A DNA stretch of 64,000 nucleotides from Candidatus Woesearchaeota archaeon (GCA_018303205.1 JAGVYP010000066.1:4706-68705); one strand, 5' to 3'. Positions 1,960 through 62,609 are shown, counted from the first letter of the stretch. The notes: generated from the sequence alone by a model not told the origin. Numbers and translations: made by a program.

Positions 1960-2032
1960 GCCCTCGTAGCATAGTAGCTATTGCGTCGGTTTCGTAAACC
2001 GAAGGTCATGGGTGCAACTCCCATCGAGGGCT
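1960..2032 (+). tRNA. tRNA-Thr (anticodon CGU)
   Basis: Cloverleaf folded by hand. Acceptor GCCCTCG/CGAGGGC, D-arm GCAT..TTGC, anticodon stem TCGGT/ACCGA with loop TTCGTAA (U33, anticodon CGT, A37), T-arm ATGGG/CCCAT with loop TGCAACT. No encoded CCA and no intron. GC-rich island in an AT-rich background. Confidence 0.8.
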
Positions 2033-7528: not shown

Positions 7529-7670
7529 GGTAAAGTCAAGTTGTGTGTGTTGTGGGAATGCGGAGATCTTGCCACTCCGTTGATCGTGGTGTTTTGCGTC
7601 GAACATCCTGCATGAATCGGATGTTCTCCTGATATCACTCCAAGGCATCCCCACTTAACTTGACTTTACC
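7529..7670 (+). repeat. Structured repeat element, copy A (core 7552-7654 flanked by GTGGG/CCCAC; outer perfect 14-bp inverted repeat GGTAAAGTCAAGTT/AACTTGACTTTACC)
   Basis: GC-rich island. Conserved core CGGAG…TTGCGTCGA-[gaacatcc CTGCATGAATCG ggatgttc]-TCTCCTGAT…CTCCAAGG, shared with copies at 13941, 44423 and 62427. Confidence 0.75.
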
Positions 7671-12332: not shown

Positions 12333-12902
12333 TTATTTTTGAATTTGTATTTCTCCTTTTTTTATTATCATCTTTGTAACAGAAGGCGCATCTTTATTGT
12401 TGTAGGAAGTAATACTTGCTATGTTCAGAGAGGTTCCCACTGGAAAGATGCTTTCTTTTCCGCTATGCTCATGCAGATGGCCGTGCACATGAAGCATATT
12501 TTTATTTTTTGTTTCTTCTAACATCTTTGTTATCTTTGCATCTCCCACATGACCAACTCCTTCAACCCAATCTTGGTCAGTTTCAGACAAGGGAGGTCCA
12601 TGTGTTACAAAAATCAGAGGTTCGTTTTGTTTTTGAAAGAAAGTAATTTTCTCTTGTGTTTCTTGATACTCTTTCTCTTCTAACGTAAATCCTTCTTTGG
12701 TAATGAATTGTTCATCATGATATCCTCTCAATGCTACCAGATTAACACCTTCAAGATCTGCATCATACAAATCAAAAACTAAAGGATATCTTTCTTGTAA
12801 TGCAGCTATTCCAGAAAAATAAACCTCTTGTTCTTCATGATTTCCAGGAATCACATATATCGGAATTCCTAGTTCTGCAAAAGGGGTAATGCCTTCAATC
12901 AT
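12333..12902 (-). CDS. calcineurin-like metallophosphoesterase
   Basis: Motifs GNHE, VTHGPP, HVHGHLHE. Confidence 0.75.
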   Translation of the reverse strand: MIEGITPFAELGIPIYVIPGNHEEQEVYFSGIAALQERYPLVFDLYDADLEGVNLVALRGYHDEQFITKEGFTLEEKEYQETQEKITFFQKQNEPLIFVTHGPPLSETDQDWVEGVGHVGDAKITKMLEETKNKNMLHVHGHLHEHSGKESIFPVGTSLNIASITSYNNKDAPSVTKMIIKKGEIQIQK

Positions 12903-12918
12903 CTCTTTTTTATTATCC

Positions 12919-13068
12919 TTACTCTCTGGATACAGGGATTGAAGGCATTACCCCTTTTTCGCTCACGATACCTAGGGTTATAGGCTCTTCTTCTCCACAT
13001 CCTATAAGAATAAAAACGAAAAAAAAGAGTACTACCATCTTGTTTATGTTCTTCATTTTTTTGAACAT
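12919..13068 (-). CDS. candidate small lipoprotein (49 aa)
   Basis: Hand translation MFKKMKNINKMVVLFFFVFILIGCGEEEPITLGIVSEKGVMPSIPVSRE. Signal peptide with a lipobox-like LIGC. Below the ORF-track size cutoff. Confidence 0.3.
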   Translation of the reverse strand: MFKKMKNINKMVVLFFFVFILIGCGEEEPITLGIVSEKGVMPSIPVSRE

Positions 13069-13940: not shown

Positions 13941-14040
13941 AGGTCATCACGGAGGTTTACTCTTCGTCCCTCAGAGCTCCTGCGAAATCAATCCTGCATG
14001 AATCGGATTGATTTCTGGTTTTACTCCAAGGTGATGACCT
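13941..14040 (+). repeat. Structured repeat element, copy B (perfect 10-bp inverted repeat AGGTCATCAC/GTGATGACCT)
   Basis: GGAGG…[gaaatcaatcc TGCATGAATCG ggattgatttc]…CTCCAA core. Lies between convergent genes. Confidence 0.75.
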
Positions 14041-42680: not shown

Positions 42681-43604
42681 ATGAAAACATTAACCCTTCC
42701 CCCCGTTACAGAACCTGTCCAAGTTTATAGAACATTAGACGATCATTTCACAAAAGAAGCAGAAGAAATCTCTGATCCTGAAAGAAAGGAGAGAGTACTG
42801 AAAGCAATCAGAAGCCTGAACACTCCTGTTTATGCTACCATTGCCTATGTCCTCACAACAGACTCAGATTTAGCATCCCAAGTGCATGATCACGTTTTGG
42901 CAGAAGTTCTTTATGTTCTTTTTCTTGATGATGCTCATGAAAAAGAAGCAAGCGCATCACGATCAAGAGAAAAAGGAAAATTAACTGATGCAGCAAAACA
43001 CGCTACAAAGGCACGAGAGTATAAAACAAGAGCAGAACAAGAACATGCTCGTGTTATTTCTTCTCTTTCAGCTGAACAAAAAGCTGAGCTCTCCCTCTTT
43101 GAAAGAGACTTTGCTCTTTACTGGGAATTTGAAAAATATTTTAGTCAAAGAATGAGAAATGGAGATCCTATTAATGAAACTGAAATGATGAACTTCGTAG
43201 AAAAAAAATCAGGGGATGTTTATCTCTATGCAAAACTTTTAGAATTCCAACTCAGAACAAAATTAGTACCAAAACAATTCAAAACATTAGATTTCTTAGA
43301 TTTTTTAATTCATGCCCAGCTCAAAAGAGACCTTGCTCATGATGAAACAGATATTTTCAGAGATCATCAAGAAGGCATGCCAAATCCTTTTTTGATCCAA
43401 GCTTACAGAAAAGGGCTCTATATTCCAGGTAAGGTATATTCTTCAGAAGAGTTACAAACTATAACAAGAAGAGTGAGAGATGTTCATCACTGTGCAGTTC
43501 GCTCTGATCTGAGCCCTACTCTCCCCATTTCATCACCTTTTGATTGGATAAAAGAGTGTCGAAAACCTTATAAGAATGGAGCTTTACCTCCTTCTTTATC
43601 ATGA
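42681..43604 (+). CDS. hypothetical helical protein
   Basis: 307-aa ORF, GC somewhat above background. 4-nt overlap with the downstream rsmB-like gene. Confidence 0.4.
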   Translation: MKTLTLPPVTEPVQVYRTLDDHFTKEAEEISDPERKERVLKAIRSLNTPVYATIAYVLTTDSDLASQVHDHVLAEVLYVLFLDDAHEKEASASRSREKGKLTDAAKHATKAREYKTRAEQEHARVISSLSAEQKAELSLFERDFALYWEFEKYFSQRMRNGDPINETEMMNFVEKKSGDVYLYAKLLEFQLRTKLVPKQFKTLDFLDFLIHAQLKRDLAHDETDIFRDHQEGMPNPFLIQAYRKGLYIPGKVYSSEELQTITRRVRDVHHCAVRSDLSPTLPISSPFDWIKECRKPYKNGALPPSLS

Positions 43605-44422: not shown

Positions 44423-44523
44423 GTGCCATTGCCTTGGAGCAAGATCAGGAGACAACGCGATTCATGCAGTGTTGTCGACGCAAGATCTCCGATCAACGGA
44501 GGAGTAAATCTCCGTAATGGCAC
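44423..44523 (-). repeat. Structured repeat element, copy C (consensus orientation on minus strand; perfect 8-bp inverted repeat GTGCCATT/AATGGCAC)
   Basis: Reverse complement reads …ACGGAG…TTGCGTCGA-[caacac TGCATGAATCG cgttg]-TCTCCTGAT…CTCCAAGG. Most similar to copy A. Confidence 0.75.
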
Positions 44524-55040: not shown

Positions 55041-55109
55041 AACCTGAAAAACTCTCCCAGTCTTTTAAGCTTTGCGGGAACAAAGATCTTATTAAGGTTG
55101 GCATCCTCA

Positions 55110-55137
55110 GGTCGAAGAGTAAACCTCCGTGACGACC
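55110..55137 (-). repeat. 28-nt remnant of the structured repeat family (5' arm of a copy-B-type element)
   Basis: Reverse complement GGTCGTCACGGAGGTTTACTCTTCGACC matches copy B 5' end AGGTCATCACGGAGGTTTACTCTTCGTCC at 25/28 positions. Itself a short palindrome (GGTCG…CGACC). Confidence 0.55.
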
Positions 55138-55294
55138 TTCTAAAGAGATAATAAATCAAAAAAATGAATAAAAAATGGATTCTGCCTCACTTTTTCATTA
55201 AGAGCGTGCATAACATAATCAAATTGTCCTCTCCGGCAGTGTAAAAAGCGTTCTGCTAAGAAAGCTTTATAAGAATCTTATATTCATAAATTGT

Positions 55295-62216: not shown

Positions 62217-62426
62217 GCTTCTTCACTCACTCAAGTATTTCTCCCCAGAAATTGCTAATAGTATGAAGAAGAAGGCATTCTTTATAAAGCTTATCTTTTT
62301 CAGATCTCAATTCTCTTTTCATTTCTCTTGTTTTTTTGTTTACTCTTTTTCTTTTCATAAAAATATAAATCAAAACATAAATACTCTACTGAAAAAATAC
62401 GATAAATAGTAGAAGACATTAATAAA

Positions 62427-62533
62427 GCATAATTTGTCACCTTGGAGTACAATGAGGAGACGAGTGATTCATGCAACGAAGTCGACGCAAAATCTGCGAG
62501 GGACGAGCAGCAGATCTCCGTGACAAATTATGC
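62427..62533 (-). repeat. Structured repeat element, copy D (consensus orientation on minus strand; perfect 14-bp inverted repeat GCATAATTTGTCAC/GTGACAAATTATGC)
   Basis: Reverse complement reads CACGGAG…CTCGTCCCTCGCAG…TTGCGTCGA…TGCATGAATC…TCTCCTCAT…CTCCAAG. Closest to copy B in the 5' region. Confidence 0.7.
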
Positions 62534-62609
62534 AAAACTTTTGTCTTCTACTAAAAATGAGAAAAAATTATAAATGTCAAAAATAAGAAACCATAATAAA
62601 TTTGTCTGT

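Follow-up and report, generated by a model that had tools for sequence, protein, structure and literature searches.

The window, by which the whole 64,000-nucleotide stretch of DNA analysed here is meant, contains four full copies (A to D) of a structured element and one decayed remnant. The copies lie between genes, frequently right next to a stop codon, and the genes beside them in the window are unrelated to each other (PadR, aminotransferase, EpsG-like, RsmB/NOP2, Nip7, metallophosphatase and permease). A link to a conserved neighbouring gene was dropped, as these neighbours are unrelated housekeeping genes. With a G+C content of 47-53% in comparison to 31-38% for the window, the copies are G+C islands like the tRNA gene of the window, as had been stated in the original prediction.

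A covariance model (R1) was built from 32 copies, and the R1 scan of the window returned exactly four full copies (72-96 bits, E 9e-21 to 1e-28), in agreement with the positions and strands first proposed; the next-best match reached 13 bits (E ~0.1), and no other was found below E 0.09. The loop sequence TGCATGAATC occurs four times in the window, once per copy and nowhere outside these loci, and CTCCAAGG occurs five times versus 1.5 expected. The proposed novelty of the element was likewise upheld by Rfam 15, for which tRNA-Thr was the sole match in the whole window at gathering thresholds and copy A with its flanks gave zero matches even at E up to 10. Separately, two arms of 22 bp (AAAAGGGGTAATGCCTTCAATC / GATTGAAGGCATTACCCCTTTT), 36 nt apart, form a perfect inverted repeat at 12879-12958, which overlaps the start of an ORF on the minus strand (12333-12902); it is the best sub-threshold match to R1 (E ~0.1) and lacks the core.

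Copies and remnant within the window

Copy A forms, together with its outer helix P0, a unit at positions 7529-7670 on the plus strand, in which P0 comprises 14 bp (7529-7542 with 7657-7670). Its core (7552-7654) consists of a closing helix P1 (7552-7561/7645-7654, one A.C mismatch), a helix H (GGAG 7562-7565, CTCC 7638-7641) followed by an AAG bulge (7642-7644), a hairpin P2 (7571-7575/7586-7590) with the loop TCCGTTGATC, and a hairpin P3 (7601-7608/7619-7626) with the invariant loop L3 at 7609-7618. Copy B (13941-14040, plus strand) is built from a P1 of 10 bp (13941-13950/14031-14040), H (GGAG 13951-13954, CTCC 14024-14027), the AAG bulge (14028-14030), P2 (13960-13963/13973-13976) with the loop TCGTCCCTC, and a P3 of 11 bp (13984-13994/14005-14015) with L3 at 13995-14004. 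On the minus strand, copy C (44423-44523) comprises P1 (44523-44514/44432-44423), H (GGAG 44513-44510, CTCC 44439-44436), the AAG bulge (44435-44433), P2 at 44504-44487 with a CTCC/GGAG stem and again the loop TCCGTTGATC, and P3 (44476-44469/44458-44451, one A.C mismatch) with L3 at 44468-44459. Copy D (62407-62553, minus strand) has a P0 of 12 bp (62553-62542/62418-62407), a P1 of 14 bp (62533-62520/62440-62427), H (GGAG 62519-62516, CTCC 62447-62444), the AAG bulge (62443-62441), P2 (62510-62507/62497-62494) with the loop TCGTCCCTC, and L3 at 62475-62466 on a degenerate P3 stem.

The shared core is narrower than originally described: C-GGAG, TGCATGAATC and CTCC-AAG-G are invariant, TTGCGTCGA is present in only three of the four copies, and the segment TCTCCTGAT, described as conserved, reads TTTCTGGT in copy B and TCTCCTCAT in copy D. 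The complementary hairpin described under the fixed loop was found with one A.C mismatch in copy C and is degenerate in copy D. As regards the perfect inverted repeats said to bracket each core, the outer 14 bp of copy A, the 10 bp of copy B and the 14 bp of copy D stood, while the inner repeat of copy A is 10 bp long with one A.C mismatch, that of copy C is either 8 bp and perfect or 10 bp with one A.C mismatch, and the further outer repeat of copy D, i.e. its P0, had been missed.

A single remnant near position 55110 had also been proposed. It occupies 55109-55138 on the minus strand (AGGTCGTCACGGAGGTTTACTCTTCGACCT) and agrees with copy B at 25 of the first 26 nt. Of a copy-B-type element it retains the 5' portion, with the P1 arm, GGAG, J1/2 and the beginning of P2, which is directly followed by the terminal 4-6 nt of the 3' P1 arm, ~70 nt in between having been deleted. 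Its P1 arm nearly equals that of copy B, and the arm was therefore duplicated along with the element. The suggested insertion into pre-existing palindromes was not borne out, since the flanking repeat is present in every copy, has a constant end and covaries, and is therefore the closing helix of the element itself; it was found in all ~130 copies, with covariation from G-C to A-U. Direct repeats do not flank the copies, and the P0 and P1 arms are unrelated between copies.

Consensus fold and covariation

The architecture was derived by anchoring every copy on the invariant blocks, and each copy, taken as a single strand, folds into a three-way junction. The core has a length of ~95-100 nt, which optional insertions bring to ~160 nt, and P0 is an optional outer helix. 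The closing helix P1 (6-16 bp) is hypervariable and its end is constant, (G/A)C paired with G(C/U). In every copy, the 4-bp helix H (GGAG:CUCC) is separated from the 3' arm of P1 by the 3-nt AAG bulge, the C:G pair, the AAG bulge on the 3' strand and GGAG:CUCC together being the invariant module. The J1/2 strand of 5-7 nt leads to P2, a hairpin with a variable stem and an often pyrimidine-rich loop, for which UCGUCCCUC, UCCGUUCC, UCCUCCGUC, UCCGUUGAUC and CCCUCCGGUCC are recurring types. A UUUURC-like J2/3 strand is followed by P3, a hairpin of 8-12 bp, nearly all of them Watson-Crick, which is capped by the invariant ten-base loop L3 (UGCAUGAAUC), and the J3 strand of 7-8 nt returns to CUCC. 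Rare variants of L3 are changed mostly at positions 4-6 (UGCAUAAAUC, UGCGUGAAUC; UGCACCAAUC in one copy) and positions 5-6 are therefore probably the tip of the loop, with the flanking bases probably forming non-canonical pairs.

The stem covariation around a fixed loop that had been noted in the four copies was confirmed by RNAalifold, in which 19 of 24 pairs showed compensatory changes. Among 89 distinct metagenome copies, pairing was observed in 91.3% of cells; column shuffles gave 62.6% and sliding of the partners 37-44%. Double-change cells numbered 612 versus 175 in shuffles, with none of 500 shuffles reaching the observed pairing or double-change values; double changes were present at all nine P3 pairs and at seven of the eight P1 pairs. 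Helix H covaries in divergent copies (GGCG:CGCC, GAAG:CUUC, GACG:CGUC), and its third pair switches from A-U to C-G in nine sequences with the AAG bulge unchanged. Copies in one genome are only ~60% identical, yet 91-95% paired via compensatory changes. The structure is under selection.

The strand on which the structure acts was addressed by wobble pairs. In P1, 25 G.U pairs were counted versus 25 A.C, in P3 three versus 11 in ~1150 pairs and in H two versus six; as G.U is no commoner than A.C, the wobble test singles out no RNA strand. The stems are nearly pure Watson-Crick and fold equally well on either strand, and for this reason the functional strand, and RNA versus single-stranded DNA, are not fixed by them.

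Some copies carry optional structured insertions of 40-60 nt exactly at the tip of P2, others an insertion inside L3, between UGCAUG and AAUC. These were rejected as bulge-helix-bulge introns, as no strict motif restoring the uninterrupted loop was found. An identical 48-nt two-hairpin insert (CCCCGAGCAACGGAGTTGCTGGGGCGCCGGAAGCTTCGCTTCCTTGCG) was observed at this L3 site in three loci (L212 3171-3316, L178 8720-8867 and L216 558-692) whose host copies differ in their stems, and a covarying version of it in L132 (12362-12502); the insert has no strict bulge-helix-bulge motif and may be either mobile or an optional domain. In a UBA10207-like Woesearchaeota lineage the element is extended on both sides to a unit of ~190 nt (L072 6646-6860, L066 5250-5420, L055, L148, L176, L183 and L186), each side consisting of a covarying hairpin and then GGUAUC, with AAUGAAU(G/C)A before the 5' hairpin. 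At ~200-225 of L189 (minus strand), a second CTCCAAGGCAC is located 10 nt downstream of a complete element, possibly left over from the 3' portion of a further decayed copy.

Distribution, genomic context and turnover

Application of R1 to related genomes and metagenomes, which had been proposed along with the original prediction, yielded 134 further copies in Woesearchaeota contigs, 43 of them in 38 Woesearchaeota-type genome loci and 91 in 100 JGI metagenome loci. The density is four copies per 64 kb in the window, and seven copies were found in the ~40 kb examined of one 154-kb metagenome contig. In an exact-pattern scan of 185,579 species genomes, true members (36-38-nt matches) were located nearly all on Woesearchaeota-labelled contigs; members of the same type were also found on a few A+T-rich contigs binned as Methanosarcinales. 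A protein flanking a copy is 100% identical to an RsmB/NOP-family protein assigned by NCBI to Candidatus Woesearchaeota. Among 2.9 million viral contigs only one match was obtained, which is attributable to chance, and a viral origin of the family was dropped on this account. The four loci of the window are paralogues and belong to a large family of structured elements of ~100 bases that had not been catalogued before and as far as sampled is restricted to Candidatus Woesearchaeota (DPANN archaea). Literature searches retrieved no description of the element; the family is real, strongly supported and apparently undescribed.

Among 34 copies that could be classified, 10 lie in convergent and four in divergent gaps, while the copies in tandem gaps are sense (8) or antisense (12) to their neighbours; the orientation relative to neighbouring genes is random. 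When 117 copies were aligned on the start of P1, neither a positional TATA-like signal upstream nor a T-run downstream was detected. In L175 (1359-1546), two copies are arranged head-to-head on opposite strands and share 3-4 nt of their 5' closing-helix arms, so that neither has space for a promoter upstream. With regard to other RNA genes, four of six tRNA genes in the Woesearchaeota loci are located ~70-800 nt from a copy, three of them within ~520 nt (L054 7450-7717, L055 2590-2978, L029 2608-3350 and L077 1815-2900), in a sample that is small and biased. Some tRNAs have unusual T-loops, UGCAACU or UGCAAUU, in place of the usual UUCRAAU (window 1960-2032; L006 1284-1355). Furthermore, a Woesearchaeota MAG carries a group I intron (Rfam RF00028, 80 bits) inside its 23S rRNA gene (L067 2808-3058), and in the same locus a family member is located 88 nt past the 3' end of the 23S gene on the opposite strand.

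The mobility suggested by the original prediction finds agreement in signs of turnover, namely the remnant and an empty orthologous site. Copy C is located in antisense orientation between the RsmB-like and the Nip7-like gene, which here are 187 nt apart. The two genes are 2 nt apart in one relative (L115/L116, 73% protein identity) and 10 nt apart in a second (L117, 52% protein identity), in each case with no element and no palindrome, which also speaks against insertion into a pre-existing palindrome; the presence/absence difference refers to this one site tested. No family copy was found anywhere in 39 kb of these relatives. The copy C locus has ~200 nt of extra sequence compared to them, including an A+T-rich stretch of 82 nt that precedes the element and a T5 run immediately after it. 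Judging from the remnant and the empty orthologous site, single copies are dispensable. In the same region, an extra ORF of 307 aa (42681-43604) follows on from the CysS-like gene before the RsmB-like one and is missing in the syntenic stretches of L115 and L117.

Possible identity of the elements

Several known classes of structured RNA were considered and rejected. By inspection of the sequence only, box C/D RNAs were dismissed, as there is no RUGAUGA box and CUGA is not conserved (CUGG in copy B, CUCA in copy D), and so were H/ACA RNAs, as no ACA follows P1; a kink-turn or K-loop is not conserved in the alignment. Guide RNAs have long unpaired guide segments, whereas all variable parts of the elements are base-paired, and, against a role as antisense guides, the arms of the closing and P3 stems match nothing else in the window beyond chance. 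The hammerhead, twister, pistol and hatchet models gave no Rfam match at E up to 10, and the junction strands do not fit the CUGANGA / GAAA of a self-cleaving ribozyme.

By analogy, the family would work most like an archaeal RNA enclosed by a processing stem, with a population behaviour partly like that of an extragenic repeat. The RNAs processed at bulge-helix-bulge sites in archaea (16S and 23S rRNA precursors, tRNA introns, the C/D-box RNA of the tRNA-Trp intron and the permuted SRP RNA of Thermoproteus) likewise have a flanking helix that encloses the RNA, and a 4-bp helix with a 3-nt bulge, a geometry that is cut by the tRNA-splicing endonuclease and whose product is often circularised. 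The order of the module, i.e. an outer helix (6-16 bp), a 3-nt bulge 3' of the CUCC strand and then a helix of exactly 4 bp in all window copies, has the orientation of the canonical motif, and tRNA introns on the same contigs have an equal layout with purine-rich 3' bulges (GAAG-GGA and CAAG-AAA). In a strict scan, a second bulge and inner helix were present in only ~19 of 47 copies, and the inner helix usually consisted of two weak pairs, mostly G.U. The P1/AAG/H geometry is that of the exon-proximal half of a bulge-helix-bulge site and, as the second bulge is mostly missing, represents at best its relaxed hBH or bulge-helix-loop form; such sites are cut by some archaeal endonuclease types (PMC5829648). 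Unlike in genuine sites, the sequence of the central helix and bulge is invariant (GGAG:CUCC, AAG); in addition, the enclosed RNA matches no known RNA, and the family has dozens of copies per genome. For comparison, the flanks of the L189 rRNA genes have no strict bulge-helix-bulge motif and are ambiguous by eye, and a search for the circular-junction sequence in metagenome contigs, a proxy for cleavage and ligation, gave zero matches and is uninformative.

We favour, with evenly divided confidence, the view that the elements are small non-coding RNA genes whose transcripts would be matured at the hBH-like module; the endonuclease step taken by itself is doubtful. In this scheme a precursor would be clamped by P0/P1 and trimmed by the tRNA-splicing endonuclease at the helix-bulge-helix module, giving an RNA of ~75 nt, possibly circularised by RNA ligase, whose invariant loop and junction would be presented to a single shared partner, either a protein or the ribosome. 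We infer, and only infer, transcription, the functional strand, endonuclease cleavage, circularisation and the partner. In favour of RNA genes are the conserved parts, which are unpaired and asymmetric, while the stems need only pair; the G+C islands resembling the tRNA gene; the unrelated neighbouring genes and the orientation independent of them; and the optional domains at the tips of P2 and L3, which recall other modular structured RNAs. The A+T-rich upstream stretch and downstream T5 run of copy C are as expected of a self-contained transcription unit. Against RNA genes stand the lack of a promoter or terminator signal over 117 copies, the random orientation, the symmetric wobble, the head-to-head overlap in L175, the dispensability of single copies and the incomplete bulge-helix-bulge motif.

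A more specific proposal, which we consider highly improbable, is that abundant DPANN-specific RNAs (~one per 10-16 kb) would be excised as circles of ~75 nt by the tRNA-splicing endonuclease and act on the ribosome. L3 with its closing CC (CCUGCAUGAAU; window 7607-7618 etc.) has the same sequence as the universally conserved strand of the 23S rRNA that follows helix 71 in the L189 operon (positions 1993-2006; nhmmer E 0.02 against 15 kb of rRNA), a stretch corresponding to E. coli positions 1961-1971, including C1962. A second Woesearchaeota 23S has two differences in this stretch, while the loop of its elements is unchanged, and the identity may be due to chance or to mimicry. The two commonest P2 loops are complementary to the neighbouring 16S central-domain sites GGAACGGA and GAGGGACGA (positions 669 and 686 of the L189 16S). 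Together, loop identity and P2 complementarity, both weak observations, hint at rRNA mimicry or at pairing in ribosome assembly or regulation. A role of the P2 loops as general rRNA antisense was rejected: matches of at least 10 nt were found in 24% of copies versus 9% of shuffles, an excess that is due to one type of loop; those to the 23S are not retained in the second Woesearchaeota 23S; and some copies have plain P2 tetraloops, including the copy beside the L189 rRNA operon. Complementarity to the sarcin-ricin loop fails against the actual Woesearchaeota sequence.

The copies could instead be non-autonomous selfish or mobile elements that disperse across the genome, an enzyme encoded at another locus recognising the folded single strand (ssDNA or RNA). 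Recognition or cleavage would then take place at the invariant loop and the AAG-bulge module, and pairing alone would be required of the stems. We regard this as rather unlikely, yet as a serious rival, and much of the population behaviour is in line with it: the copy number is high (four per 64 kb here, up to seven in ~40 kb elsewhere), copies are found only between genes and in either orientation, the copy C site is empty in relatives and copy C lies antisense within what is an operon junction in them, the remnant is nearly identical to copy B including the closing-helix arm, one pair of copies overlaps head-to-head, and the 48-nt insert at the same L3 position of three otherwise different copies looks like a site-specific insertion. 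Watson-Crick-only stems with symmetric G.U and A.C counts are also as in DNA-level palindromes, and the promoter signal is missing. What such an origin leaves unexplained is that copies of ~60% identity keep 91-95% pairing, as dead mobile copies should gather mismatches; moreover, near-identical full-length copies, target-site duplications, conserved terminal repeats, a true match in the viral contigs, and a transposase, reverse transcriptase or integrase adjoining the window copies were not seen. Integrons are reported in DPANN archaea, and integron attC sites resemble the family in a variable sequence with a conserved folded single strand, extrahelical bases that mark the strand, and a variable or branched tip. 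This identity was rejected, as the family has no R'/R'' core sites (RYYYAAC / GTTRRRY) at the helix base, is scattered on both strands rather than in same-orientation arrays after gene cassettes, and has no nearby integrase; its strongly conserved internal loop is not a feature of attC. REP/BIME/REPIN, ERIC, Correia and MITE-like families are likewise short, abundant, intergenic palindromes in either orientation with presence/absence differences, but their copies in a genome share the stem sequence and differ randomly, whereas here the stems are unrelated and perfectly compensated, only loops and bulge are conserved, and terminal repeats, target duplications and an associated transposase are lacking. 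A MITE or REP repeat was rejected for these reasons, stems and termini not being common to the copies.

The analogy to REP/BIME or ERIC may also be one of function, the copies then being cis-acting extragenic palindromes that work in either orientation, for example by stabilising mRNA 3' ends, by blocking read-through transcription or by binding a chromosome-organising protein. A role independent of orientation would fit stems able to fold on either strand alike; also in favour are the high copy number and the intergenic location, often at stop codons, with convergent gaps exceeding divergent ones (10 and four of 34 classifiable copies). It is nevertheless improbable, since the best-conserved parts are not the stems but the asymmetric, unpaired UGCAUGAAUC and the AAG bulge, which points to strand-specific recognition, since close relatives, with 2-10 nt between the genes, manage without an element where copy C is located here, and since 12 of 20 copies in tandem gaps are antisense to both neighbours. 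Barely conceivable, and already largely refuted, is a disrupted, permuted or cryptic tRNA(-like) gene, or a bulge-helix-bulge intron escaped from its host gene. Like the family, tRNA genes comprise many old paralogues with conserved loops, covarying stems and optional insertions at loop tips, scattered as G+C-rich islands in both orientations; L3 ends in a T-loop-like GAAUC, with some tRNAs on the same contigs having the T-loops UGCAAUU or UGCAACU, and four of six tRNA genes in the examined loci are near an element. DPANN genomes without complete predicted tRNA sets have also been reported (PMC5829648). However, no cloverleaf can be drawn, the helix lengths are incompatible with a 7-bp acceptor stem, a 5-bp T stem and a 7-nt T loop (P3 has 8-12 bp and a 10-nt loop), and there is no acceptor end, no D arm and no anticodon-type loop, with seven to eight unpaired bases between P3 and the closing helix. 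ARAGORN finds no tRNA at these loci, whether or not introns are permitted, the Rfam tRNA model has no match at copy A at E up to 10, and the sequence outside P1 is A+T-rich spacer rather than exon.

The genomes of Woesearchaeota, which are uncultured symbionts, measure about one megabase; at the density of the window, several tenths of a percent of this would consist of such elements, which are absent from databases. If the elements are RNAs, as favoured here, few RNA gene families of Woesearchaeota apart from tRNAs may be larger, and the archaeal splicing endonuclease would have a wider range of substrates than is known so far. If they are selfish, they would be of an unusual kind, with compensatory change upholding the structure in every copy, for which a new explanation would be needed. 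In either case, R1 is a ready marker for Woesearchaeota contigs and the family a concrete target for metatranscriptomics.
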